From positions 1-41,968 of the IMG/VR virus record IMGVR_UViG_2563366992_000001: a stretch of DNA of 41,968 bases; one strand, written 5' to 3'. Under the pieces are notes generated by a model. The model saw only the letters and a program-made list of their open reading frames with translations. It was not told the origin of the DNA and did no database searches. Made by a program: the position numbers and the translations under genes. Below, one piece after another: positions 3,517 through 41,968 of this stretch; positions within the stretch are counted from its first letter, which is position 1, and the number at the start of each line of letters is the position of its first letter. Source of the DNA: a virus (lineage: Duplodnaviria; Heunggongvirae; Uroviricota; Caudoviricetes).

Positions 3517-4043
3517 TTGCGTAACTCCGATAACTCGTTAAAGCGTTCCATAAACATCCCGTAGGCATGGCCCGGTGCCAGTGGAATCACGTTGAACATC
3601 TCTGTTGCCGGGATACCTTCCAGTACAGGCCAGAAAGAGCCATCATCAAGCCCGAGATCGCGGCGTTCGGTTGCCAGCATGATGAGATCGGCATATTTCA
3701 CGGGCGTACTCATAACTGGGGGTAATCCGTATTTCTCACGGATTACGGAGTCTATTTTTTCTTCCATTTGTTTATAGTCAGGAAGAAGGCGTTTCAGTGG
3801 TGCGGGAATGTCCTGGCAATACGCTTCTGTTGCATCATGCATTAACGCTTCAAAAGCAAATTCCTGCGGCACCAGCTGGCTGCAAAGAACCGCATGTTGG
3901 GCGACGCTGTAGAAGTGCGAAAGATGACCGGCAAAGCGACAGATATTTGAAAGGGAAACCGCGATATCGTTAATATCGATGTCGTCTTTATTTATCTTGT
4001 CATAATAAAAATGCTTCCCGGAAAAAGTTTTAATAAATGACAT
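3507..4043 (-). CDS. HD-domain phosphohydrolase (YfdR-like 5'-deoxynucleotidase family)
   Basis: H...HD signature (QHAV ... MHDATEAY); ATG at 4043 preceded by GGAGA; track start at 4070 is a GTG. Confidence 0.6.
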   Translation of the reverse strand: MSFIKTFSGKHFYYDKINKDDIDINDIAVSLSNICRFAGHLSHFYSVAQHAVLCSQLVPQEFAFEALMHDATEAYCQDIPAPLKRLLPDYKQMEEKIDSVIREKYGLPPVMSTPVKYADLIMLATERRDLGLDDGSFWPVLEGIPATEMFNVIPLAPGHAYGMFMERFNELSELRKCA

Positions 4044-4170
4044 TTTGTTCTCCACGTATATGCGCTGCACCGCGCTGAATTCTGGTAAAAAGAATCCCTC
4101 ACCATCCGGCGATTATTGAGTAAATTACGTTTCCATAAATGCCCCCGCAGGGGCATTTGCAGTAATGAAA

Positions 4171-4995
4171 TCAGGCGGTGAAAGTACCAATAAAGGTTTC
4201 TACTTTGCTGTCCTTGAATTTCTCAACAAGCAGATCACGAAATTCGTTAGCCATTTCTTCCTGCACCGCCTCCAGCTGAATAATGCGCAGAACCAGTACC
4301 GGACGATCGCCAGTGATAATGCTGAGGCGTAATTTAAACGGACGTTCTTTCAGACCTTCAAACGGAATGCATTTAAATTCAAATGCCACTGGCATAATGT
4401 CTTTGGTCTTCGCTTCGACAGACTCCATCAGGGAGCGTTTGCCGCTGAAGTCATTATCTTCAAAATCAGCGGTCTGGTTTGCTTCAATCGTGATTTTACG
4501 GATCGCCGCAGCCGCTTTTGTTGCCTGAATGGTGTCACCATTAGCATCAAAGCCCACAAGGTAGTCGGCCCAGTCTTCAATCCATTCTGCCAGTGATTTC
4601 TGGGAGTTACGCTCGCCATTAACAGACAACAGAGCAGAGAACGGTGCTGTCTTTTTCAGTTTGAGAGTGGCGGTGTTATCTGCGTGACCTGGTTCATCAA
4701 TAGTACCCAGGTTAAGCACACTGACGGCACGCATATTATCAGCATCGATAAAGCAGCGGGTGCCTTCATCTGCAAGATCTTTAGAATAACGGGTAAAGTC
4801 ATCGATGCTGGCAGTGGAAAGCGCACCACGGAAACGGAAGCGATTTAAATTAAATTTTTCCAGATCATGAATGCGGAAATTCTCAGGCAATGCCACAGCA
4901 TCGGCACCAATCTTACTGATAATTTCATTAACACCCTGAGCAGAAATAAGGGCATGGATTTGATTAATTGCGGTTGCGTCTAAGTTCTGAGACAT
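4171..4995 (-). CDS. DUF2303 (YfdQ-like) family protein
   Basis: 274-aa ORF; resembles YfdQ-type prophage proteins by memory; neighbour of the HD-domain gene as in CPS-53-like prophages. Confidence 0.45.
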
Positions 4996-5060: not shown

Positions 5061-5423
5061 TTAATGACCTGCTGCGCGGAGTTTTCCGTCAGGTTCACCG
5101 GCAAGAGTCAGTAATTGTCCCTGGTCTTCCTGCAGAATAGTCAGGCGACCACCGCGATTGACATACATCGGCGTTTCGGTGGTGTCTTCTTCGGAAATTT
5201 TCCCGCGGTTAGTCGGGCGAACATATGAGAGTTTGTGTTTGATTTTCACACGGTTCTCATCAAATGGTTCGATTTCCAGGTTGAGTGAGACCTTACCTTT
5301 GGTTTTCGTGTTCATCACACCGGAAGCGACTTCACTGAGAACTGCGCCGATTTTGGTTTCAAATACGCCGCCGTCCAGCTCCCCGATAAATGCCTGCACA
5401 TCAGTACTGCGTTCGCTAGCCAT
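5061..5423 (-). CDS. hypothetical phage protein
   Basis: Internal ATG (MASERSTDVQAF...) with GAGGAG RBS; upstream part of track ORF 5061..5741 is low-complexity and probably non-coding. Confidence 0.5.
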   Translation of the reverse strand: MASERSTDVQAFIGELDGGVFETKIGAVLSEVASGVMNTKTKGKVSLNLEIEPFDENRVKIKHKLSYVRPTNRGKISEEDTTETPMYVNRGGRLTILQEDQGQLLTLAGEPDGKLRAAGH

Positions 5424-5471
5424 TTTGCTGCTCCTCATCATATCGACCCTGCAAGGCCGATTAGTTTCTCC

Positions 5472-5660
5472 ACAAAACAGAGAAGAACACCTGCGGTAGC
5501 AGCCGCCCGGATGGATTGGGTTATGAGCCCGTCGTCCGGTGATGCTCTTCTCTGTTTTGTAAAAAGGACGGTACCAGCCGGAAGCAAGGGTACAAACTGG
5601 TACCGCCAGGACTACACACAGCATAAAGTTGTGGTGCCGGGTGCCTCCCGGTGCCTGGCG
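5472..5660. other. cluster of nested inverted repeats (candidate structured RNA or DNA site)
   Basis: 18-nt arms 5472..5489 and 5543..5560 (15 perfect bp + 1 mismatch + 2 bp); 8-bp perfect IR GGTACCAG/CTGGTACC 5570..5604; 7-bp IR CGCCAGG/CCTGGCG 5604..5660. Confidence 0.3.
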
Positions 5661-5860
5661 AAGGTTGCACACCAGACGGGTGGGTATCCACAGAAGGTCG
5701 ACTGTCAGCCTCAACCTTAACCCGCGTGCGCTGAGCCGCATTCACCACAACGCTAAGGATTCTCTTTGGTTGAAAATACTTAGCTGTTATGTGCCTGTCT
5801 TTTCACCACTTCAGGCTCGGTGGTATCCTTTTAAGCCCGTATACATAAAAGGAAAATCAA

Positions 5861-7430: not shown

Positions 7431-8019
7431 ATCGATTAACAGAAACCACAGAACGATGAGGCTAACCGTGGGTAAGCATCACTGGAAAGTAGAAAAACAG
7501 CCTGAGTGGTACGTGAAAGCTGTCAGAAAAACTATCGCAGCGTTGCCGGGTGGTTACGCTGAAGCGGCTGACTGGCTCGATGTAACAGAAAACGCTTTAT
7601 TCAACCGCCTTCGTGCAGATGGCGATCAGATTTTCCCGCTGGGATGGGCAATGGTTTTACAGCGTGCTGGTGGCACTCACTTCATTGCTGATGCTGTGGC
7701 GCAGTCTGCAAATGGCGTCTTTGTGTCTCTTCCTGACGTCGAGGATGTGGACAACGCCGATATCAACCAACGCCTGCTGGAAGTCATTGAACAGATCGGC
7801 AGTTATTCAAAACAGATTCGTTCAGCAATTGAAGACGGTGTAGTGGAACCGCATGAGAAGACAGCAATTAACGATGAGCTGTACCTCTCAATTTCGAAGC
7901 TGCAGGAGCATGCAGCACTGGTCTACAAAATCTTTTGCGTTTCAGAAAGTAGTGACGCCCGCGAGTGTGCAGCTCCGGGCGCCGTGGCGTGTCGTGACTG
8001 TGGAGAAACTAACGCATGA
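7423..8019 (+). CDS. putative CII-like / YdaT-like regulatory protein
   Basis: ATG at 7423 overlaps cro stop (ATGGATAA); position after cro. Confidence 0.35.
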
Positions 8020-11988: not shown

Positions 11989-12984
11989 GTGACCGTGAGA
12001 GCACTACTGACCCCTGAAATTGCCCCGCGTATGGGGATCGTATTGTTCAGGCCAGGTTCAGAGCTGATGCCCCTGTTTATGCAGGGGCGTGTCCTGCTGG
12101 AGCCTGAGCCGGAGCGTTATTCATCTTTCGCCAGTGGTGCCGTTCCGGCGGCATCACAACCGCTGGCGGATGATCCTGCCGTTCGGGCCGTGTTCCGCAA
12201 TGAGGCAGTTATCCGTCGTGCTGGTGGCGTGGAATGTCTTGAAAGCTGGTTACGTCGTGAAAAAGGCTGCCAGTGGCCTCATTCCGACTGGCACAGCGAG
12301 AACATGACCACAATGCGACACGCTCCGGGCGCAATCCGTCTGTGCTGGCACTGCGATAACCAGCTGCGCGATCAGTTCACGGAACGGCTGGAATCAATGG
12401 CAACGGATAACTGTGCCCGCTGGGTGTTGTCTGTTGTGCGTCGGGATCTCGGTTTTGATGATAGTCACGTTGTGACAATGCCGGAACTGTGCTGGTGGCT
12501 GATTCGTAATGACCTGGCGGATGCCTTACCGGAAAGTGCAGCCCGTAAGGCACTGAGATTACCAAAGCCTGTTGTGCCGTCTGTCACCCGGGAAAGTGAC
12601 CTTGTGCCTTCGGTTCCTGCCACCAGCATCATCCAGGATAAGGCGAAAAAGGTGCTGGCGCTGAAAGTGGATCCGGAGTCGCCGGAGTCTTTTATGTTAC
12701 GCCCAAAACGTCGCCGCTGGGTTAATGAAAAGTACACGCGCTGGGTTAAGACACAGCCGTGTGCATGTTGTGGAAAGCCTGCTGATGATCCCCACCACCT
12801 GATAGGCCACGGTCAGGGTGGGATGGGTACAAAAGCGCATGACCTCTTTGTGTTGCCTTTGTGCAGAAAGCATCACGACGAGCTGCATGCGGATACCGTG
12901 GCATTTGAAGAGAAGTATGGCTCCCAGCTGGAGCTGATATTTCGTTTTATCGATCGTGCGCTGGCAATAGGCGTACTGGCGTAA
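11989..12984 (+). CDS. DUF968-family protein (putative HNH-like nuclease domain at C-terminus)
   Basis: C-terminal CCGKPADDPHHLIGHG ... CRKHHDELH Cys/His cluster; GTG start. Confidence 0.45.
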   Translation: MTVRALLTPEIAPRMGIVLFRPGSELMPLFMQGRVLLEPEPERYSSFASGAVPAASQPLADDPAVRAVFRNEAVIRRAGGVECLESWLRREKGCQWPHSDWHSENMTTMRHAPGAIRLCWHCDNQLRDQFTERLESMATDNCARWVLSVVRRDLGFDDSHVVTMPELCWWLIRNDLADALPESAARKALRLPKPVVPSVTRESDLVPSVPATSIIQDKAKKVLALKVDPESPESFMLRPKRRRWVNEKYTRWVKTQPCACCGKPADDPHHLIGHGQGGMGTKAHDLFVLPLCRKHHDELHADTVAFEEKYGSQLELIFRFIDRALAIGVLA

Positions 12985-12997
12985 GTGGAGAACGAGC

Positions 12998-13750
12998 ATG
13001 AACCTTGAAGCTTTACCAAAATATTACTCCCCAAAATCTCCAAAATTGAGTGATGACGCACCGGCGACAGGCTCGGGTGGTTTAACAATTACAGATGTGA
13101 TGGCTGCGCAGGGGATGGTGCAGTCGAAAGCACCGCTTGGGTTTGCCTTATTCCTGGCAAAAGTTGGTGTTCAGGATCCTCAGTTTGCGATTGAAGGTCT
13201 GCTCAATTACGCGATGGCACTGGATAACCCGACATTGAACAAATTGAGTGAAGAAACCCGGTTACAGATCATCCCTTACCTTGTGAATTTTGCCTTTGCT
13301 GATTATTCCAGGTCTGCGGCAAGTAAGGCTCGCTGTGAGCATTGTGCTGGTACTGGATTTCATAATGTATTGCGCGAGGTGGTGAAACACTCCAGAAGCG
13401 GGGAATCTGTTATCAAGGAAGAGTGGGTGAAGGAACTATGTCAGCATTGTCATGGTAAGGGAGAAGTCAGCACAGCGTGCAGAGGGTGTAAGGGTAAAGG
13501 TATTGTCCTGGATGAAAAAAGGACCCGGCTTCATGGCACGCCTGTTTATAAGATTTGTGGGCGTTGCAATGGAAACCGATTTAGCCGTTTACCAACCACA
13601 CTGGCGCGGAATCATGTCCAGAAGCTGGTACCAGACCTGACGGATTATCAGTGGTACAAAGGATATGCAGATGTCATTGATAAACTGGTTACAAAGTGCT
13701 GGCAGGAAGAAGCATATGCAGAGACACAATTGAGAAAGGTGACAAGATAA
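12998..13750 (+). CDS. Q: lambda-type late antiterminator Q
   Basis: Strong resemblance to lambda Q (YSPKSPKLSDD...TDVMAAQGM; FAFADYSRSAA; zinc-binding Cys cluster); GTGGAG RBS. Confidence 0.85.
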   Translation: MNLEALPKYYSPKSPKLSDDAPATGSGGLTITDVMAAQGMVQSKAPLGFALFLAKVGVQDPQFAIEGLLNYAMALDNPTLNKLSEETRLQIIPYLVNFAFADYSRSAASKARCEHCAGTGFHNVLREVVKHSRSGESVIKEEWVKELCQHCHGKGEVSTACRGCKGKGIVLDEKRTRLHGTPVYKICGRCNGNRFSRLPTTLARNHVQKLVPDLTDYQWYKGYADVIDKLVTKCWQEEAYAETQLRKVTR

Positions 13751-13781
13751 ATGATTTTCGACGAAGATGGCGACATGATAC

Positions 13782-13810
13782 TTGCATTTTTCAAAAAATC
13801 TGGATAAGAT
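13782..13810 (+). promoter_or_regulatory. candidate Q-dependent late promoter (PR'-like)
   Basis: TTGCAT (13782..13787), 17-bp spacer, TAAGAT (13805..13810), immediately downstream of Q. Confidence 0.4.
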
Positions 13811-13858
13811 TTTCTCAACGATGGGCTTTATGTATCTGCTGTTGATAACCTTCAAGAA

Positions 13859-13880
13859 CTCGCCATTGAGCGGGTTTTTT
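13859..13880 (+). terminator. weak intrinsic terminator (tR'-like)
   Basis: 5-bp stem CTCGC/GCGGG with 6-nt loop followed by TTTTTT. Confidence 0.3.
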
Positions 13881-13952
13881 ATTGTGTAAAAACAGAATGA
13901 CGGTATTAATTAGTAATATAATTATTCGACCATACAACTAGGGGTCGAAAAA

Positions 13953-14738
13953 ATGTATGTTTTTGAGTTAATCAAGCCAGGCAGTAATCTTAAGTTTGAA
14001 AACAGAGAGTTAGAATGGACGTTTAATAACTTATTATCCCATTTAGAAACTGCATTTTATGATGCTAATGTAGCATTAAATTTATTCGAACAGGAAAGAA
14101 CTAAGAATAACAGTAAATTCGATAATATTTCTCAGACATGGCAAGCTGATGTACAGAAACGACAAGCACTGGAAATGCTGGTTCGTAAAGAGTTTGGTTA
14201 TCAACCTTATGAATATTCAGAACAGGTTTTTTCAGAGGTCGAGCTACGTCTAAAAAGAGAAAAATGGAATAACGGTGAATATCCGTTGGCTCATCAACAC
14301 AGATTGATCTTCTTACATGCAAAATCATTTCTCTACGCTTTGGATGCTATTGATAAATTTTTAAAGGTAATTTCAAAAGAAAATGGCGCGCCAGAGAACA
14401 TTAAAAAATTGCATGAACAGCTTTCTAAAGACTTTCCGGATTTAAGAAAGGTAAGGAATTCAGCTCAACACATGGAAGACAGAGTTCGTGGGCTTGGTGC
14501 AGAGAAAGAACCAAAGCCAATAAAACTCAAACCTGTAAATAATATTCATGTTGTTGCACCTCAGGGGGCATTGATGTTGAATAACTTATTCGGAACTAAA
14601 TTTGGGTGCACTATGGCTGATGGCTATTATGGTGAAGTAGATATTTCGACAGAGTCTTTGGCAAAGTTGCAAAATTTAATCCAAAAAGTTTTTAATTCCT
14701 TCAGTTGGGAAGGACCAAAGCAACACCTTCCCCGATAA
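13953..14738 (+). CDS. AT-rich moron protein of unknown function; candidate HEPN-like toxin (R-x4-H motif)
   Basis: 261-aa ORF between PR'/tR' and the holin; marked AT-richness versus flanking phage genes; motif RNSAQH; own downstream terminator. Confidence 0.55.
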   Translation: MYVFELIKPGSNLKFENRELEWTFNNLLSHLETAFYDANVALNLFEQERTKNNSKFDNISQTWQADVQKRQALEMLVRKEFGYQPYEYSEQVFSEVELRLKREKWNNGEYPLAHQHRLIFLHAKSFLYALDAIDKFLKVISKENGAPENIKKLHEQLSKDFPDLRKVRNSAQHMEDRVRGLGAEKEPKPIKLKPVNNIHVVAPQGALMLNNLFGTKFGCTMADGYYGEVDISTESLAKLQNLIQKVFNSFSWEGPKQHLPR

Positions 14739-14756
14739 CATTTTCTTTTTTATTGA

Positions 14757-14786
14757 AAGCCGCCAAATAATTGGCGGCTTTTTTAT
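14757..14786. terminator. strong intrinsic terminator after the moron
   Basis: Stem AGCCGCC/GGCGGCT (14758..14764, 14773..14779) with loop AAATAATT and a T-tract; A/T runs on both sides suggest bidirectional function. Confidence 0.7.
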
Positions 14787-14827
14787 TTCACAGTACCCGC
14801 AAATATCGCGAGGTGAGAGATGACGAA

Positions 14828-15154
14828 ATGCCTCATAACCCAAATACCTGGCTGGAGTTGGTCCAGAGCTGGTGGCGTGGAGACACGCCGCTGGGCGCAG
14901 TAATTATGTCGATCGTTATGGCTGGCTTGCGCATTGCCTATTTTGGCGGTGGTGGTGGCTGGAAGCGAAAAACGCTCGAGATTTTGCTCTGTGGCGCTCT
15001 GACACTGACTTTTGCATCCGCTCTTGAGTATGTCGGATGGCCTAAATCACTTTCTGTTGCCATTGGTGGTGGGGTGGGGCTGATCGGTGTCGATGCTATT
15101 CGTGGGGCTGCAATGCGAGTAATCGGTAATAAATTTGGTAGCTCGAAGGAGTAA
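14828..15154 (+). CDS. putative holin
   Basis: Small membrane protein with hydrophobic segments and charged C-terminus immediately upstream of endolysin; ATG at 14828 (track start 14771 is TTG inside the terminator). Confidence 0.6.
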   Translation: MPHNPNTWLELVQSWWRGDTPLGAVIMSIVMAGLRIAYFGGGGGWKRKTLEILLCGALTLTFASALEYVGWPKSLSVAIGGGVGLIGVDAIRGAAMRVIGNKFGSSKE

Positions 15155-15157
15155 TTT

Positions 15158-15634
15158 ATGCAGGCTCTAAATTCCCAGCGTAAAGCTTTCCTTGATATGG
15201 TGGCATGGTCAGAAGGAACGGATAACGGGCGACAACCGACACGTAACCACGGTTATGATGTTATTGTTGGTGGCGAACTGTTCACTGATTACTCCGATCA
15301 CCCTCGCAAACTTGTCACGCTAAACCCCAAACTCAAATCAACAGCAGCCGGACGTTATCAGCTACTTTCACGCTGGTGGGATGCTTACCGTAAGCAGCTT
15401 GGCCTGAAAGACTTCTCCCCCAAAAGCCAGGACGCAGTGGCATTGCAGCAGATTAAAGAACGTGGCGCTTTACCGATGATTGATCGCGGTGATATCCGTC
15501 AGGCAATCGACCGTTGCAGCAATATCTGGGCTTCACTGCCGGGGGCTGGTTATGGTCAGTTCGAGCATAAGGCTGACAACCTGATTGCAAAATTCAAAGA
15601 AGCTGGCGGAATGGTCAGAGAGATTGAGGTATGA
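15158..15634 (+). CDS. R: endolysin, lambda R-type lytic transglycosylase
   Basis: Near-identical to lambda R by memory ([22 protein letters not shown]...). Confidence 0.95.
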
Positions 15635-16098
15635 GCAGAGTAACCGCGATTATCTCCGCTCTGGTTATCTGCATCATCGTCTGCCTGTCATGGGCTGTTA
15701 ATCATTACCGTGATAACGCCATCGCCTACAAAGAGCAGCGCGATAAAAAAGTCAGTGAGCTGAAGCAGGCGACTACCACCATTACTGACATGCAGCAGCG
15801 CCAGCGTACTGCTGATGCACTTGATGCTAAATACACGAAGGAGTTAGCTGATGCGAAAGCTGAAAATGATGCTCTTCGGCGCAAGCTTGATAATGGTGGT
15901 AGGGTGCTCGTCAAAGGAAAATGCCCTGTGCCATCCTCAGCCGAAACCTCCAGCGCCTCCGGCATGGGCAATGATGCCACCGTCGAACTCTCTCCAGTTG
16001 CTGGACGAAACGTTCTCGGTATCCGGGACGGAATTATCAGCGACCAAACAGCACTAAGAACGCTTCAGGAATACATCAGGACGCAATGCCTTCGATGA
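15631..16098 (+). CDS. Rz: i-spanin (Rz)
   Basis: N-terminus [31 protein letters not shown] matches lambda Rz. Confidence 0.9.
15851..16057 (+). CDS. Rz1: o-spanin (Rz1), embedded in Rz in the +1 frame
   Basis: Lipobox VVGC followed by a proline-rich segment; fully nested in Rz. Confidence 0.8.
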
Positions 16099-16444: not shown

Positions 16445-16987
16445 ATGAACTACCCAACCGTTGTTAACGATATAGATTTCAGAGACCTAATTTTTGTAGC
16501 AAACAACGATCCGGTTACAGATTCTTTTATGGTGGCAAAAGCATTTGGAAAGCTGCCGAAGAACGTGGTTCGTGACATTGAACGAACCATAGAAGCTTGC
16601 CCTCCTGAGTTTGATACAAAGCTCAACTTTGAGCTTTGCTATAAAAACAATGAGTTACAGAATGGTAAGCCGCAAAAATTCTACCGTCTCCGCAAGGATG
16701 GGTTGATGCTTTTGGTTATGTCCTACACCAAAAAAGAAGCAATGCGTATCAAAATTGCTTACATCAACGCATTTAACTGGATGTACGCCATGCTTCAGGT
16801 TGGTCATCGTCAATTTGAAGAAGAGAGAAATGCCGTAATGCTGGAGTACATGAAAGAGAAGGATGTTGCCAGCATGTCAGGTCGCCTGCTCAATCGCTGG
16901 GGAAAAATTAAGAAGCCTCAGCTACTGGCGAGAATTGAACGCCTTGAACAGCACGGGCAGACCGTAATCCCCGGACTCACTAATTAA
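16445..16987 (+). CDS. Rha-family phage regulatory protein
   Basis: N-terminal segment PVTDSFMVAKAFGKLPKNVVRDIE resembles the Rha domain. Confidence 0.65.
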   Translation: MNYPTVVNDIDFRDLIFVANNDPVTDSFMVAKAFGKLPKNVVRDIERTIEACPPEFDTKLNFELCYKNNELQNGKPQKFYRLRKDGLMLLVMSYTKKEAMRIKIAYINAFNWMYAMLQVGHRQFEEERNAVMLEYMKEKDVASMSGRLLNRWGKIKKPQLLARIERLEQHGQTVIPGLTN

Positions 16988-36390: not shown

Positions 36391-36789
36391 TTAATACCCC
36401 ACAGCCATCCAGTAAATTGAATTTGTTGTAGCAGAAGTGTAAGTAAATCTGATTTTAGTTCTGTTGGTACTTCCAATATCAAAGCCCACAGAACGGGCAG
36501 AAGGATCATTAGTTGAAATAAGAGCGTTTACCGAACGACAAGCAGCAGGGAAAGCTACAGGTAATGTTATATCAACTGTTCCAACACTTCCTCCGGTTGG
36601 TGAGACAGAAAAACTCCCCCATTGAATAATCATCCCCCCAGGTAATTTCTGGTATCCATTGGCGGTCAATGAGTTACCAAAGCTGTTCATATCCGGTACC
36701 TGATTTTCTCCTGTCCCCACATTCCTCTTTGCCGCTTCTCCCAAACCAACGTTTATGAAAATGCAGAAATAACGAGCAAATGGCATCAT
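36391..36789 (-). CDS. alternative tail-fibre C-terminal segment (silent orientation, no own start)
   Basis: Reads LGLGE across the crossover site, as the active fibre does; would fuse to the constant region after inversion. Confidence 0.6.
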   Translation of the reverse strand: MMPFARYFCIFINVGLGEAAKRNVGTGENQVPDMNSFGNSLTANGYQKLPGGMIIQWGSFSVSPTGGSVGTVDITLPVAFPAACRSVNALISTNDPSARSVGFDIGSTNRTKIRFTYTSATTNSIYWMAVGY

Positions 36790-36815
36790 TCCTGCTTTTG
36801 TCAGGGAGATCTACC

Positions 36816-37370
36816 ATGCTTATTGGCTATGTACGTGTGTCAACAAATGACCAGAACACAGATCTACAACGTAATGCGCTGAACTGTGCAGGATGCGAGC
36901 TGATTTTTGAAGACAAGATAAGCGGTACAAAGTCCGAAAGGCCTGGACTGAAAAAACTGCTCAGGACATTATCGGCAGGTGACACTCTGGTTGTCTGGAA
37001 GCTGGATCGGCTGGGGCGTAGTATGCGGCATCTGGTCATTCTGGTTGAGGAGTTGCGCGAACGAGGCATCAACTTTCGTAGTCTGACGGATTCAATTGAT
37101 ACTAGTACCCCAATGGGGCGCTTTTTCTTTCATGTGATGGGTGCCCTGGCTGAAATGGAACGAGAACTGATTGTTGAACGAACAAAAGCTGGACTGGAAG
37201 CTGCTCGCGCACAGGGACGAATTGGTGGACGTCGTCCCAAACTTACACCAGAACAATGGGCGCAGGCCGGTCGATTAATTGCATCAGGCGTTCCTCGCCA
37301 GAAGGTGGCGATCATCTATGATGTTGGTATATCGACACTGTATAAGAAGTTTCCGGTCGGAGATAAATGA
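36816..37370 (+). CDS. pin: serine DNA invertase (Pin/Gin/Hin family)
   Basis: N-terminal GYVRVSTNDQ catalytic-Ser motif and C-terminal HTH; adjacent to the invertible segment. Confidence 0.9.
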   Translation: MLIGYVRVSTNDQNTDLQRNALNCAGCELIFEDKISGTKSERPGLKKLLRTLSAGDTLVVWKLDRLGRSMRHLVILVEELRERGINFRSLTDSIDTSTPMGRFFFHVMGALAEMERELIVERTKAGLEAARAQGRIGGRRPKLTPEQWAQAGRLIASGVPRQKVAIIYDVGISTLYKKFPVGDK

Positions 37371-37405
37371 AACCGTAGCACGTCGTATGCAAGATCGTGC
37401 TGCGG
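37353..37405. repeat. direct repeat copy A (pin 3' end plus hairpin)
   Basis: CCGGTCGGAGATAAATGAAACCGTAGCACGTCGTATGCAAGATCGTGCTGCGG; contains an 8-bp stem hairpin 37375..37403. Confidence 0.55.
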
Positions 37406-37427
37406 TTTATGCTTATCACTTAAAGAC

Positions 37428-38297
<870 letters not shown>

Positions 38298-38377
38298 CTA
38301 ACCCTTTGAATTTACATAGCGCAAAAAGATACCTTTCCTCATAATGTGAGCTAATTTTATGTTTCGTTTGATGATCG

Positions 38378-38426
38378 GGTCGGTCTCGAAACCCGTAGCC
38401 ACGTCATATGCAAGAACGTGCTACGA
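38378..38426. repeat. direct repeat copy B (degenerate copy of the pin 3' end plus hairpin)
   Basis: CGGGTCGGTCTCGAAACCCGTAGCCACGTCATATGCAAGAACGTGCTACGA aligns with copy A over about 50 bp with a few substitutions and indels. Confidence 0.55.
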
Positions 38427-38706
38427 CTGGCTGGTGAACTTCCGATAGTGCGAGTATTGAATGATTTCCAACTGTTATCGATTTTGCGTATTTTTTGCAT
38501 GAGAGGATTTTTACCTCCTCCCACCGATCCTCCATGGCTTTACGCCAGTGTCTCTGGTCTGCTATGTGCCAGTTGCGGACATTACAAATAGCAGTACGTA
38601 TTGATCAGTTCAAAAAAACCACAATATTTATTGAAACAAATGAAGGTAATGATATTTTATTGTGATGAAGTATTGGTGCTGGGATTTGACTTAAGGGAGT
38701 GAAGTA

Positions 38707-40026
38707 ATGTGCAATAAGTTATCAGGGTGTTTTCATGCTGTCGGAAATGGAACTTTTTTTACTTCAAAAATCCGAGGGGAAGATGGCAATGTATTTAACT
38801 GGGGTTATGACTGTGGCTCTACAAGTGAAAATGCCATAAATAACATAATTAACTCATCTTATATGGAGTTTGAAGACGGTGATAGTATAGATATGATGGT
38901 CATTTCTCATTTTGACGATGATCATGTTAACGGATTGATAACTCTATTAAGAAAGCACACAATAAAAAGATTGGTACTTCCTTATAGTGATTGGGCTCAG
39001 TCTATTAGGGAAATATGTATAGATGGATTCCATGGGTTATCACGTTCTGCCGCACTTTTTCAGTTAAACCCAGCACTATGGTTATATAATAACGATCTTT
39101 CAAATCGTGTGGAAAAAATAATTTTAGTACAAGGCAATGGTGGACCAGAGAATCCTGAGGAACCGATAACTCCTGAAAATCCTCCGAACAATCATGATGA
39201 ACCTTTGATACTAAGAGATGATTCGGAGGAATTAAACGATCCTGAACAAGAAAGACACATAAATGATGCCAAGGATAATATGTTTATTGATTTAGGCATG
39301 CCAATCAATAGTAGCGGAATGAAAATATCAAAAATCAACCACATGCAACCTATTGGTGCACTCGACGGTATTTTTGAATTTGTATTTTATAATGCTGAAA
39401 AAACATTTAAAAAACTCAATCTTGTGTATGAGAAAGATGAGGAATTTTACGCCATAAAATCTCATGTTAAACTTGCCGATGCTAAGAAAGATATTCAAGA
39501 AACAATTGAGAGTATTAACCTACACCGAAGTATCAACTCTAGTATTGATGTACAATGGCGGGAGAAGTTAAAGATTTGCTACCAAAAACATTTCGGTAGC
39601 ACCAATAAGGCCCAGAACAATATTTCTTTATGTATGTATGCGTCACCTAAAATCACCCCGCATGATGGCCTTTTCTTTTTCGGTCAATGTCAGGAAAGTT
39701 ACAATATTCATTCTTCTGGTTTGATATTTACAGGGGATATTAATCTGACAACCCCTGTTCTAGATGATTTAAAGTCTCATCTGGGCGTTGATCGATGGAT
39801 GAATTGTGGATTGTTTCAGATCCCTCATCATGGTTCGGCGACGTGCTGGGAGAAAGGACATACTAAAAGGATCAAACCTGCTTATTTTGTTCAATGTGCA
39901 AACCCTACATTAAAACATCCCAGTCAGTTTGTTTTAGATGATTTGAATGGTGAAAAAAGCATTGTTTATAATGCATCCCGACAAAATCCAGTACATTTTT
40001 CATACTTTTTCAAAAAGTATATGTAA
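38707..40026 (+). CDS. standalone ComEC/Rec2-like metallo-beta-lactamase-fold hydrolase (putative nuclease)
   Basis: Motifs CFHAVGNGTFF, SHFDDDHVNG (H-x-D-x-D-H), FTGDI, QIPHHGS and KHPSQ in the order seen in ComEC-type MBL domains; AT-rich; AAGGGAG RBS. Confidence 0.55.
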   Translation: MCNKLSGCFHAVGNGTFFTSKIRGEDGNVFNWGYDCGSTSENAINNIINSSYMEFEDGDSIDMMVISHFDDDHVNGLITLLRKHTIKRLVLPYSDWAQSIREICIDGFHGLSRSAALFQLNPALWLYNNDLSNRVEKIILVQGNGGPENPEEPITPENPPNNHDEPLILRDDSEELNDPEQERHINDAKDNMFIDLGMPINSSGMKISKINHMQPIGALDGIFEFVFYNAEKTFKKLNLVYEKDEEFYAIKSHVKLADAKKDIQETIESINLHRSINSSIDVQWREKLKICYQKHFGSTNKAQNNISLCMYASPKITPHDGLFFFGQCQESYNIHSSGLIFTGDINLTTPVLDDLKSHLGVDRWMNCGLFQIPHHGSATCWEKGHTKRIKPAYFVQCANPTLKHPSQFVLDDLNGEKSIVYNASRQNPVHFSYFFKKYM

Positions 40027-40138
40027 GAATAAACTATCGAGGTTTGTCGGAAAACAAAGCTGTTAGGGTAATGTTATGTTGTAATATTATCCGTCTATAA
40101 TTGAATGCTGAGTCCGCTGATCGCTCTTGAAGGACAAC

Positions 40139-40177
40139 CATACTCAAATCTCTCACATTGCAGGAGATTTGAGTATG
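40139..40177. repeat. perfect 14-bp inverted repeat with 11-bp spacer spanning the recombinase RBS and start codon
   Basis: CATACTCAAATCTC (40139..40152) and GAGATTTGAGTATG (40164..40177); the ATG at 40175 lies in the right arm. Confidence 0.7.
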
Positions 40178-40777
40178 AACACGTTACCGTGGAACAAAGA
40201 CCGTATCATCGGCCAAAAAAGACCGCTTCAGATATCTCATATCTGGGGGATCCGAATCAGGCTTGAACTGGAAGGTAAAACGCGCGATCTGGCCCTGTTC
40301 AACATGGCTTTGGACAGTAAGCTACGGGGCTGTGATCTGGTTAAACTAAAAGTATCAGATGTTGCATATGGTAGCTCTGTTTCAAGCAGAGCAACGGTGT
40401 TGCAGCAGAAAACCGGTAGCCCTGTGCAATTTGAGATAACTAAAGGGACTAGAGAAGCCGTTACTGCATTGATAAAGCTTAGTAATTTGCATAGTAAAGA
40501 CTACTTGTTCCGATCTCGGGTCGGTACTAACCGGCACATATCAACCCGGCAATACAACCGAATTTTTCATGGATGGATAGAAAAGCTTGGTCTCGAAGAT
40601 TCGCTTTACAGCACACATTCCATGAGAAGAACAAAACCTTACCTGATCTACAAGAAAACCAAGAATCTCCGAGTGATCCAACTTCTGTTGGGCCATAAGA
40701 AACTGGAAAGTACAGTCCGTTATCTGGGCATTGAAGTCGATGATGCGTTAGAGATCTCTGAATCGATTGAAGTCTAA
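40175..40777 (+). CDS. small tyrosine recombinase, FimB/FimE-like size (200 aa), catalytic domain only
   Basis: Catalytic residues in order: LRGCDLVKLKVSDV (Arg I), HSMRRT (H-x-x-R), LLGH, TVRYLG (Tyr); no arm-binding N-domain; ATG at 40175 with AGGAG RBS. Confidence 0.65.
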   Translation: MNTLPWNKDRIIGQKRPLQISHIWGIRIRLELEGKTRDLALFNMALDSKLRGCDLVKLKVSDVAYGSSVSSRATVLQQKTGSPVQFEITKGTREAVTALIKLSNLHSKDYLFRSRVGTNRHISTRQYNRIFHGWIEKLGLEDSLYSTHSMRRTKPYLIYKKTKNLRVIQLLLGHKKLESTVRYLGIEVDDALEISESIEV

Positions 40778-40783
40778 GGTTGT

Positions 40784-40805
40784 CAGGGCTGCGATAGCAG
40801 CCCTG
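40784..40805 (+). other. perfect 9-bp stem / GATA tetraloop hairpin after the recombinase (no U-tract)
   Basis: CAGGGCTGC GATA GCAGCCCTG. Confidence 0.4.
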
Positions 40806-40866
40806 TGCCAAGAACGGACTTTCTTGGTTCTGTTATTAATTATGGAGATAAGAAATTTATTTATGG

Positions 40867-40925
40867 CACTATAATGAGACTTAGGAAATAAGGGGTTAAG
40901 CTATATGACACTATAAGAACTAAGG
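40867..40925 (+). promoter_or_regulatory. paired direct repeats containing -10-like hexamers upstream of the last gene
   Basis: CACTATAATGAGACTTAGG (40867..40885) and CACTATAAGAACTAAGG (40909..40925). Confidence 0.35.
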
Positions 40926-40972
40926 ATGGGTTTCTAACGGATGAGTATATAACCAATTTAATAGGTGTTACT

Positions 40973-41968
40973 ATGAACGGAATTTGGTATAAAAACACAC
41001 ATACTCGCATTCCTCGCTTTGAATCTACAACTCATATTAATCAGAAAGTAGGTTATGCTTATGAAACATCAAGCCATTTCGTGCACTTTTATGGGCGTGA
41101 TGTTGGATTCAATGTTGTTTCAGTCGGATTAACTGTTGTTGAGCATAAAAATGGAAATCTAGATGAGTGGGTGCAAAGGGTTTTTGGCGCTCAAGATATC
41201 CAGCCATTGAACAAAGAGGTTGGGCATGTCACTCAAGGGGTGTGGAGACCTTCTCTTTACTATATGAAAGATATCGAAGTCGCGCTAGGTATTGATGAGT
41301 TTGAAAAACGCGCATCAGAACAAGCTCTACGAGTTCTCATTGAAAAAATTGATGATATTTTATTATATGTTGAACCTAGCTCTAGTGGGTTAAATTCATA
41401 TAGCCATAAATGCAGAGAGTTGTTGATTCTCGCATGTACTGAGGTTGAAAACCAATGGGTGTCAATAATAAATAAAACAAATGGATTCAAGTCAAATGCA
41501 AGGTACAATACCAATGATTACATTAAACTTTTGGATAAATGTTTTTTAAAAGACTTCAGAATACAGTACTGTAATTATCATGGCCTTAGGTTCTTTAAAC
41601 CATTTGATAGTTGGTCTATAGCCAATCCAACCACATCATTAAGATGGTATGACGCATATAATAAAACAAAACATGACAGATCTGGCGCATTTTATTTTTC
41701 AACTCTGGAAAATGTGATGGAAGCAGTAGCTGCATGTATTGTGTTGTATTGCGTAAAATATGGACCATTTAGTTTAACAGAGTCTAAAACAACGTTATCA
41801 ACAATTGTAAATCAACACTTTTCCATTTCATTTGAAAATAGTGACCCTGCAAATTATTACATTCCTGAAATTGAACTTCCACAAGGTTCTAGAGGTGATT
41901 TGTTTCTTTATGATTGTTATCGTGAAGGGCATAATAAAAATTGGATTAAAGACTCTTTGATTATATAG
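40973..41968 (+). CDS. hypothetical protein (331 aa), AT-rich cargo gene
   Basis: ORF with AGGTG RBS; no motif I can place; stop codon is the last triplet of the window. Confidence 0.5.
   Translation: MNGIWYKNTHTRIPRFESTTHINQKVGYAYETSSHFVHFYGRDVGFNVVSVGLTVVEHKNGNLDEWVQRVFGAQDIQPLNKEVGHVTQGVWRPSLYYMKDIEVALGIDEFEKRASEQALRVLIEKIDDILLYVEPSSSGLNSYSHKCRELLILACTEVENQWVSIINKTNGFKSNARYNTNDYIKLLDKCFLKDFRIQYCNYHGLRFFKPFDSWSIANPTTSLRWYDAYNKTKHDRSGAFYFSTLENVMEAVAACIVLYCVKYGPFSLTESKTTLSTIVNQHFSISFENSDPANYYIPEIELPQGSRGDLFLYDCYREGHNKNWIKDSLII

Follow-up and report, generated by a model that had tools for sequence, protein, structure and literature searches.

A one-gene, AT-rich module between the Q antiterminator and holin genes of a lambdoid prophage, and the widespread protein family of its product, a candidate HEPN-like effector

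Tha, the tail-activated HEPN anti-phage system, is a non-specific ribonuclease (RNase) whose activity is locked until a phage protein sets it off and that then brings about abortive infection (PMC11087260). Tha-1, which is encoded by a prophage of Staphylococcus aureus, contains the motif RNSIMH, and its H270A mutant loses defense (PMC11087260). In this study, a gene whose product contains a motif of the same form was analyzed in IMG/VR record IMGVR_UViG_2563366992_000001 (Caudoviricetes), a stretch of 41,968 nucleotides (nt) that is referred to as the window at its full length. The gene is a plus-strand open reading frame (ORF) at 13953–14738, encodes a protein of 261 amino acids (aa) and is located between the genes for the antiterminator Q and for the holin of a lambdoid prophage. 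A preliminary description of the interval 13751–14790 had proposed a single-gene moron at the position equivalent to that of stx, the Shiga toxin (Stx) operon, whose product would be a HEPN-like toxin or abortive-infection RNase. Our results showed that the gene is a one-gene cargo whose homologs are widespread and mobile, and that its motif is part of the most conserved block of the family. We tentatively propose that the protein is a HEPN-like RNase that would be triggered by infection and would abort it.

The protein family, its conserved motif and its genomic contexts

Searches of Pfam, NCBIfam and PADLOC 2.0 with the 261-aa protein returned no significant match, only sub-threshold noise (Gp44_lid, Exo70_N and BamD). 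The family is absent from these three collections and its function is undescribed. The protein matched the PHROG family phrog_5322, which is annotated as "unknown function", over its full length (E = 5e-140). A word-indexed search identified 375 relatives, of which every named one was a "hypothetical protein". An exhaustive search with a hidden Markov model identified 982 clusters (50% identity) at E ≤ 1e-3 and 444 at E ≤ 1e-30, and nearly all of the 150 clusters listed were full length, with about 260 aa. The hosts were Gamma- and Betaproteobacteria as well as some Deltaproteobacteria, Campylobacterales and Acidobacteria, and environmental, non-pathogenic genera, such as Idiomarina, Limnobacter, Methylobacillus and Psychrobacter, were frequent among them. 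The exact 261-aa sequence was found on 915 contigs, and the region was present in 22 of 5,426 complete E. coli genomes. No record of the phage collection held a full-length copy. Marinitoga phage MPV1 and Marinitoga camini virus 1 matched residues 87–182 only, with an identity of about 33%, and the record of MPV1 also cites PHROG 5322. The homolog in MPV1, gp37 (3911–4525 of locus L009), has 204 aa, consists only of the four-helix core with the motif and is encoded between the tape-measure and tail genes of this phage of Thermotogota; morons are typical of this position as well, and the host is a very distant one. Bridging searches that started from the Marinitoga homolog yielded only three relatives, none of which was annotated.

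In catalytic HEPN motifs, an arginine precedes an asparagine or aspartate, and a histidine stands four residues further on. The 261-aa protein contains RNSAQH at residues 168–173 (nt 14454–14471), which the preliminary description had read as the R-x(4-6)-H signature of HEPN RNases. The loose pattern R-x(4-6)-H occurred in 68% of shuffles of the protein and the strict pattern R[NDH]x3H in 5%; the presence of RNSAQH in one sequence is therefore not evidence. Thus, the motif was indeed present, but as a match in a single sequence it was no better than chance. Judged from the aligned homologs, the motif is meaningful through its near-invariance across the family. Among 106 diverse members whose identities to the query were 29–49%, R168 was conserved in 104, N/D169 in 105, S/T170 in 102 and H173 in 104. 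The residues that follow the histidine were similarly conserved (E/D175 in 105, D/E176 in 101 and R177 in 101), and D131 of the second core helix was conserved in 96. Conservation in the family peaks in the resulting block, R-[N/D]-[S/T]-x-x-H-x-[E/D]-[D/E]-R; its codons in the window (R168-N-S-A-Q-H173-M-E-D-R177) are at 14454–14483, near the predicted N-terminus of the fourth core helix. Only five of 269 sequences lacked R[ND][ST]xxH, two of which were short fragments, and the Marinitoga homolog retains FPNLRYVRNSIAHFEDR. Acidic residues were conserved in the C-terminal domain too (D/N223, E228 and D/E230), where the conserved segment reads G-x-T-M-A-D-G-x-x-G-E-x-D.

The conserved core spans residues 84–200 (nt 14202–14552), is predicted to form four helices and is the part that is also present in the Marinitoga homolog. 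The AlphaFold2 model of the full protein had a predicted local distance difference test score (pLDDT) of 87.5 and a predicted template modeling score (pTM) of 0.80. It is predicted to contain an N-terminal strand, long helices at residues 18–54, 59–81, 89–106, 112–142 and 149–160, a short helix with the motif at 164–172, and a small beta domain made of the N-terminal strand and residues ~205–260. The model of the core only (pLDDT 76.5, pTM 0.51) contained helices at its residues 6–23, 29–58, 65–77 and 81–95, of which the fourth carried R85, N86 and H90. With moderate confidence only, this core model agrees with the description of HEPN domains. Neither a signal peptide nor a hydrophobic segment was visible in the 261-aa sequence, and the protein is predicted to be cytoplasmic.

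In prophages, genes of the family were often found at the same position as in the window. For instance, the gene order in four different Klebsiella prophages was always Q, family member and holin, with two families of Q. A small ORF of 51–86 aa on the minus strand was also present between Q and the family member of Klebsiella prophages (7653–7895 of locus L002, 7634–7894 of L003 and 7739–7894 of L005) and was missing from the E. coli window. Among 31 non-redundant loci of IMG/VR, the upstream ORFs included members of the Q families PF03589 (10), PF06530 (6) and PF06323 (5) as well as of DUF1133 (6), and the downstream ORFs included members of five holin families; a few loci had tail or AAA_15/AAA_21 genes instead. 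The alleles of Leclercia and Citrobacter were 64 and 38% identical, respectively, to that of the window, and the ORFs next to them were alike in size and spacing. Similar to the window, the upstream ORF of the Leclercia locus (L015) encodes a DUF968 protein.

Family members were also found outside of this prophage position. The chromosome of Chromobacterium has a solo copy between a gene of the phosphotransferase system and a GntR gene. On an integrative element of Pseudomonas parafulva (L010), a copy is directly beside a HEPN_AbiU2 gene and two genes away from a pair of AAA_21 and RloB genes. These genes (5064–5834 and 8837–10796 of L010) are inside the element, which also has a DUF927 gene, and the AAA_21 and RloB genes are downstream of the family member. 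On an integrase/VapE-type element of Aeromonas, a SIR2-like gene is two genes away from the family member. In an integron of Vibrio parahaemolyticus, attC-type repeats at L014 5861–5982 and 6790–6911 bracket the gene exactly, so that it forms a one-gene cassette, and the cassette array also contains HEPN_AbiV. VP1817, a gene of V. parahaemolyticus integron defense, was considered as a possible family member and is probably a different gene; the scan of one genome per species returned no V. parahaemolyticus locus. The Psychrobacter plasmid pA53P1 (4,168 bp) has the family member as its sole cargo in addition to rep, mobA and mobC, and on two other small plasmids the family member is beside type II toxin-antitoxin genes.

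The 150 ORFs that neighbored family members at 44 genomic loci matched 153 Pfam families, none of which occurred in more than three ORFs, and no conserved partner gene or antitoxin was found among them. Moreover, the gaps to the neighboring genes varied, and the neighbors were on either strand. Given these solo contexts, on a plasmid, in an integron cassette and with no fixed neighbor, no protein partner is needed for the protein to be tolerated, and it behaves as portable cargo of mobile genetic elements. Its distribution over a prophage slot, an integron cassette, small plasmids and islands with AbiU2 or SIR2 genes resembles that of toxin or defense cargo, in agreement with the kind of role that the preliminary description had suggested.

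The cargo module between Q and the lysis genes

The interval 13751–14790 is the gap between Q and the lysis genes and contains a single ORF. The upstream gene at 12998–13750 (plus strand) encodes a Q antiterminator of 250 aa, of the ydfT/phage-82 type (PF03589, E = 4e-54; annotated as ydfT/Q in RefSeq). The lysis cassette at 14828–16098, also on the plus strand, consists of the genes for a lambda-family holin (14828–15154; PF05106, E = 6e-25), a lysozyme (15158–15634) and Rz (15631–16098). Thus, the position of a 261-aa ORF between Q and the holin gene was confirmed. The ORF is among the three stretches of lowest G + C content (GC) of the window, and its GC of 0.358 (0.307 at third codon positions) lies below those of the window (0.503), Q (0.469) and the lysis genes (0.511), just as a gene more AT-rich than the flanking phage genes had been described.

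The boundaries of the insert were visible in comparisons with related phages. The region 13700–13880, which includes the 3' end of Q and the following 130 nt, was about 90% identical to those of 15 Stx2c-converting phages, phiSTEC1575-Stx2k, PhiR47_1, mEp460 and others. On the left, phages that have the same Q are similar up to 13880, where the hairpin in the position of tR' terminates; on the right, similarity to phages restarts at 14776, in a match to mEp460_4F5, just before the holin gene. The insert therefore spans about 13881–14775, has a GC of 0.351 and comprises the putative promoter, the gene and most of its terminator, all on the plus strand. A direct repeat of 14 nt, GCGG[G/C]TTTTTTATT, is located at both edges of the insert, at 13870–13883 and 14774–14787; its copies correspond to the 3' half of tR' and to that of the terminator of the gene. 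This repeat could be a recombination junction for the exchange of cargo or could simply reflect two similar terminators.

Relatives with the same Q had other genes in this slot, such as four tRNA genes with small ORFs, or hypothetical genes with a DNA methyltransferase gene. The Stx2c-converting and Stx2k phages have the Q module in common up to the slot, and stx is the slot cargo of the Stx2c-converting phages. In sister prophages of E. coli, whose Q and holin flanks were 93% identical, the slot contained an ORF for an 80-aa hypothetical protein (WP_001306866.1; 760–1002 of locus L127). A query in which the two flanks were joined found no empty site in E. coli among the best-ranked records; the sister prophages hold the 80-aa ORF there. 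As this position is where Stx2c phages that share the Q module have their cargo, the view of the gene as a single-gene moron in the stx-equivalent slot was well founded. The features of a moron were all found, which are an extra gene between conserved phage genes, a deviating GC (0.35 vs. 0.50), an own terminator and a putative promoter.

Several candidate expression signals were identified around the gene. A putative late promoter PR' (TTGCAT, a spacer of 17 nt and TAAGAT) is at 13782–13810 on the plus strand. The PR'-like promoter that had been noted earlier is plausible by its position after the stop codon of Q and by its conservation with phages that have the same Q, but its sigma-70 score was poor and it was not called by the promoter scan. 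The tR'-like intrinsic terminator (13854–13885, plus strand) is the last element in common with phages of other cargo; its hairpin at 13854–13879, which is followed by a T-run, had a folding energy of −11 kcal/mol (z = −2.7) and was kept in 11 related loci. The form CCCGCC...GCGGG-TTTTTT of this hairpin directly 5' of the gene was kept in ten loci of IMG/VR, and the wider viral set has several upstream Pfam families of Q. The hairpin may travel with the cargo or act as a shared crossover point. If the putative PR' were active and its transcripts ended at tR', a short RNA of about 70 nt (13810–13885) would arise, comparable to the 6S RNA of lambda and the small RNA StxS of Stx phages. The region 13810–13885 matched no Rfam family, and the Rfam matches near the gene were terminator-like and sub-threshold only.

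The gene probably has a promoter of its own, as the preliminary description had guessed. A perfect TATAAT at 13917–13922 (plus strand), preceded by a weak −35 element, is located 30 nt before the ATG. In 17 of 25 related loci, a box of the sequence TATAAT or TACAAT ended 29–31 nt before the start codon, and TATAAT ended 51 nt before it in four more. In an alignment of 11 upstream regions, which were 13843–13955 of the window and those of ten IMG/VR loci, the bases of the −10 box were invariant and the neighboring bases varied. The Shine-Dalgarno sequence AGGGG (13940–13944) is 8 nt before the ATG, and its GG was conserved in the same alignment. Downstream of the gene, the intrinsic terminator at 14755–14790 has a stem of 12 bp (14755–14782) followed by a T-run. 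The strong terminator of the gene's own that had been described was borne out by a folding energy of −18.7 kcal/mol (z = −6.2), which was not reached by any of 200 shuffles. Moreover, a terminator hairpin followed the gene in every lineage examined (Leclercia, Citrobacter and Klebsiella loci), and its stem sequence differed each time. The unit of candidate promoter, gene and terminator thus has the make-up of a classical moron. The lysis genes are downstream of both terminators; late transcription of the gene by Q-modified polymerase that reads through them would therefore be expected, by analogy with lambda and phage 82.

Other parts of the window also have features of variable regions. The gene before Q (11989–12984) encodes a DUF968 protein with a HNHc_6 nuclease-like C-terminus, and such a gene is also upstream of Q in the Leclercia locus. 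A gene for a Rha/ORF11CD3 regulator-like protein at 16445–16987 separates Rz from the HNH/terminase genes; E. coli JE86-ST05 has the identical moron, and its annotation shows a DUF2441 gene in place of the regulator-like one. The position 16445–16987 looks like a second variable cargo slot. Two low-GC ORFs without Pfam match (38707–40026 for 439 aa and 40973–41968 for at least 331 aa) adjoin genes for a serine resolvase/invertase (36780–37370) and a GIY-YIG protein (37428–38252, minus strand) and an integrase fragment (40127–40777). The region 36780–41968 that contains them is probably the end of the prophage or another island.

A proposed HEPN-like RNase and the rival explanations

According to the explanation that we tentatively favor, the locus is an autonomous cargo module in which a sigma-70 promoter and a terminator of its own frame the 261-aa ORF as the only gene, and which a lambdoid prophage carries between tR' and the gene for the holin. 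The own promoter would maintain a low level of the protein in the lysogen. Upon induction, Q-modified RNA polymerase would proceed through tR' and the terminator of the module to the lysis genes, so that the gene would also be transcribed late. The protein would be a HEPN-like, metal-independent RNase; its four-helix core would display R168, N169 and H173 where the fourth helix begins, and, as other HEPN enzymes do, it would probably pair these residues between the two subunits of a homodimer. The beta domain and the N-terminal helices may serve as a sensor or lock that keeps the enzyme inactive until an infection-derived signal arrives. The activated enzyme would then cut cellular and phage RNA, such as mRNA or tRNA, growth would stop and the infection would be aborted.

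Several results weigh against this explanation. Scanning of the 106 diverse members with Pfam revealed no HEPN match, and the query likewise matched no HEPN model in Pfam, PADLOC or NCBIfam. Sequence and profile searches of the PDB, for which alignments of the full family and of its core as well as the Marinitoga homolog were used, found nothing relevant, and in a Foldseek search of the PDB the best E was 0.17, with solved HEPN domains ranking not above generic bundles. The probabilities obtained with hhalign were below 1% for an alignment of 36 AbiU2 sequences and 0.1% for Tha-1, and profile alignment with a single AbiU2 sequence was not significant either. The best alignment with AbiU2, of nine columns and non-significant (<1%), set FPDLRKVRN on LEKLRALRH, motif over motif. 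Moreover, the pLDDT falls to 54–59 around residues 170–190, just after the motif, the helix that bears the motif is short, and the conserved E-D-R after the histidine is not a described feature of HEPN domains. The genomic contexts also included few PADLOC matches among the neighbors at the 44 loci, most of which were housekeeping or unrelated genes, and the defense neighbors are anecdotal. The literature was searched for the accession and the PHROG family, and neither a mention of the family nor an experimental report was found. Finally, a toxic RNase that is co-transcribed with the late genes of the phage would need to avoid self-harm, and no device for it is visible at the locus. Thus, the assignment to HEPN that the preliminary description had suggested was not upheld by any of these comparisons. 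Structure prediction speaks neither clearly for nor clearly against a HEPN fold, because HEPN itself is a four-helix bundle. HEPN membership is a hypothesis drawn from the motif and the predicted helical core rather than a demonstrated relationship.

The lack of HEPN homology in sequence, profile and fold searches would be expected if, as the main rival explanation has it, the protein were a conflict or defense effector other than a HEPN RNase, for instance a metal-dependent nuclease, a phosphodiesterase or a nucleotide-modifying enzyme, in which the R/H/E/D/R block, D131 and the C-terminal segment form a different active site within a new fold of a helical bundle and a beta domain. The conserved E/D175, D/E176, D/N223, E228 and D/E230 would suit metal binding, of which HEPN RNases have no need; the helical bundles matched by structure include the metal-binding ones of hemerythrin-like proteins and bacterioferritin; and the solo, mobile distribution on mobile genetic elements fits such an effector equally well. 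However, a HEPN domain would be expected to show just this spacing, R-[N/D]-x3-H, where a helix of a four-helix unit begins, the protein matched no other enzyme family, and by inspection its sequence contains no HD, PD-(D/E)xK, HNH, PIN or GIY-YIG signature; we consider this alternative somewhat unlikely. It is unlikely, too, that the family is unrelated to HEPN and that an unrecognized enzyme fold with a new R/H/E/D/R site defines a new class of one-gene immunity or conflict effectors that lambdoid phages have repeatedly placed at the Q-holin junction and that could be expressed in lysogens from an own promoter as well as through Q read-through, perhaps with competing phages or satellites as targets in the late phase. 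The place that the gene has in most prophage copies, after Q and tR' and before the holin gene, across several unrelated Q families and five holin families, would also be accounted for by a late gene, expressed mainly via Q read-through, that benefits the phage itself instead of protecting the lysogen, through shut-off of host RNA, interference with satellites or co-infecting phages, or counter-defense. Judging from lambda, phage 82 and Stx phages, a gene in this slot would be strongly transcribed late, and the Marinitoga copy is found among tail genes. The many non-phage copies (on the Chromobacterium chromosome, in the integron cassette, on small plasmids and next to mostly non-phage genes at the 44 loci) render such a benefit improbable; moreover, the module retains a −10 box and a terminator of its own that Q-driven expression does not need, and the unrelated cargo of sister phages makes the slot look like a permissive hotspot.

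Being the sole cargo of a 4.2-kb plasmid, a neighbor of type II toxin-antitoxin genes on two small plasmids and a member of a cassette array, the gene could also encode an addiction or stabilization toxin that, together with an unrecognized RNA antitoxin or self-inhibition, keeps plasmids, cassettes and prophages from loss. AbiF of Clostridioides difficile, a HEPN protein, is reportedly controlled by RNA, going by the title of one paper. Searches near the gene for a type III-like RNA antitoxin, tandem repeats or a conserved non-coding element found none, no neighboring ORF is conserved beside it, and the 5' leader would be only about 24 nt long if the −10 box is used; we regard a role in addiction as quite improbable, although addiction and defense are not mutually exclusive. 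The same slot and the same Q-dependent logic as those of stx would fit a virulence toxin that is directed at eukaryotes and released by phage lysis, like Shiga toxin. The 261-aa protein resembles no known exotoxin, and this very improbable explanation was rejected on account of the lack of a visible export signal and the wide occurrence of the family in environmental bacteria.

The HEPN-like, infection-triggered RNase that we favor would make this a widespread single-gene defense family that Pfam, NCBIfam and PADLOC 2.0 do not detect, and the Q-to-holin junction, best known for Shiga toxin, would also be a slot for immunity cargo. If the HEPN assignment is right, the gene would represent a HEPN system of abortive infection that consists of one gene and whose signature, C-terminal domain and preferred slot are all distinctive; if it is wrong, the family may be more unusual. 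A further question is how a phage tolerates a toxic effector that its late transcript must cross, to which the answer of Tha is a dedicated inhibitor. As a candidate, the gene is well delimited and widespread, but a specialist would not be surprised by it. It is a small solo gene, occurs in E. coli, Klebsiella, Acinetobacter and Vibrio, and can thus be tested directly with standard phage panels.

Comparison with known systems

As a full-length member of PHROG 5322, the 261-aa protein belongs to a family without functional annotation, and this membership is uninformative on its mechanism. Similar to the slot cargo of other lambdoid phages between Q and S, such as stx operons, tRNA clusters and methyltransferase genes, the module is an AT-rich insert after tR' with promoter-like and terminator signals inside the Q-dependent late transcript. 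Different from these morons, it encodes a predicted cytoplasmic protein of an undescribed family that also circulates outside of phages.

Similar to AbiU2 (PF18734), AbiV (PF18728) and AbiD/AbiF (PF07751), which are helical proteins with R-x4-6-H encoded by solo genes for about 200–350 aa on plasmids, prophages, integron cassettes and islands, the protein is predicted to be largely helical and is encoded by a solo gene. It resembles AbiU2 further in that the two are about equal in length and have their motifs at similar relative positions (R152...H158 of 256 residues in AbiU2), and an AbiU2 gene is the immediate neighbor of a family member in one Pseudomonas island. However, the 106 members matched none of these Abi families in Pfam or PADLOC, the profile probability against AbiU2 was below 1%, and the H-x-E-D-R extension and the C-terminal beta domain are specific to the family of the 261-aa protein.

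Of the systems that have been described, Tha-1 and Tha-2 resemble the protein in being single prophage proteins of similar size (301 aa for Tha) with the same form of motif, RNSIMH compared with RNSAQH, but no homology to it was detectable (0.1% in hhalign). Their genetic settings differ as well: Tha is encoded in the cI (lysogeny) operon together with ith, an overlapping antisense gene for its inhibitor, whereas the gene of this study is in the late operon, where no partner is visible.

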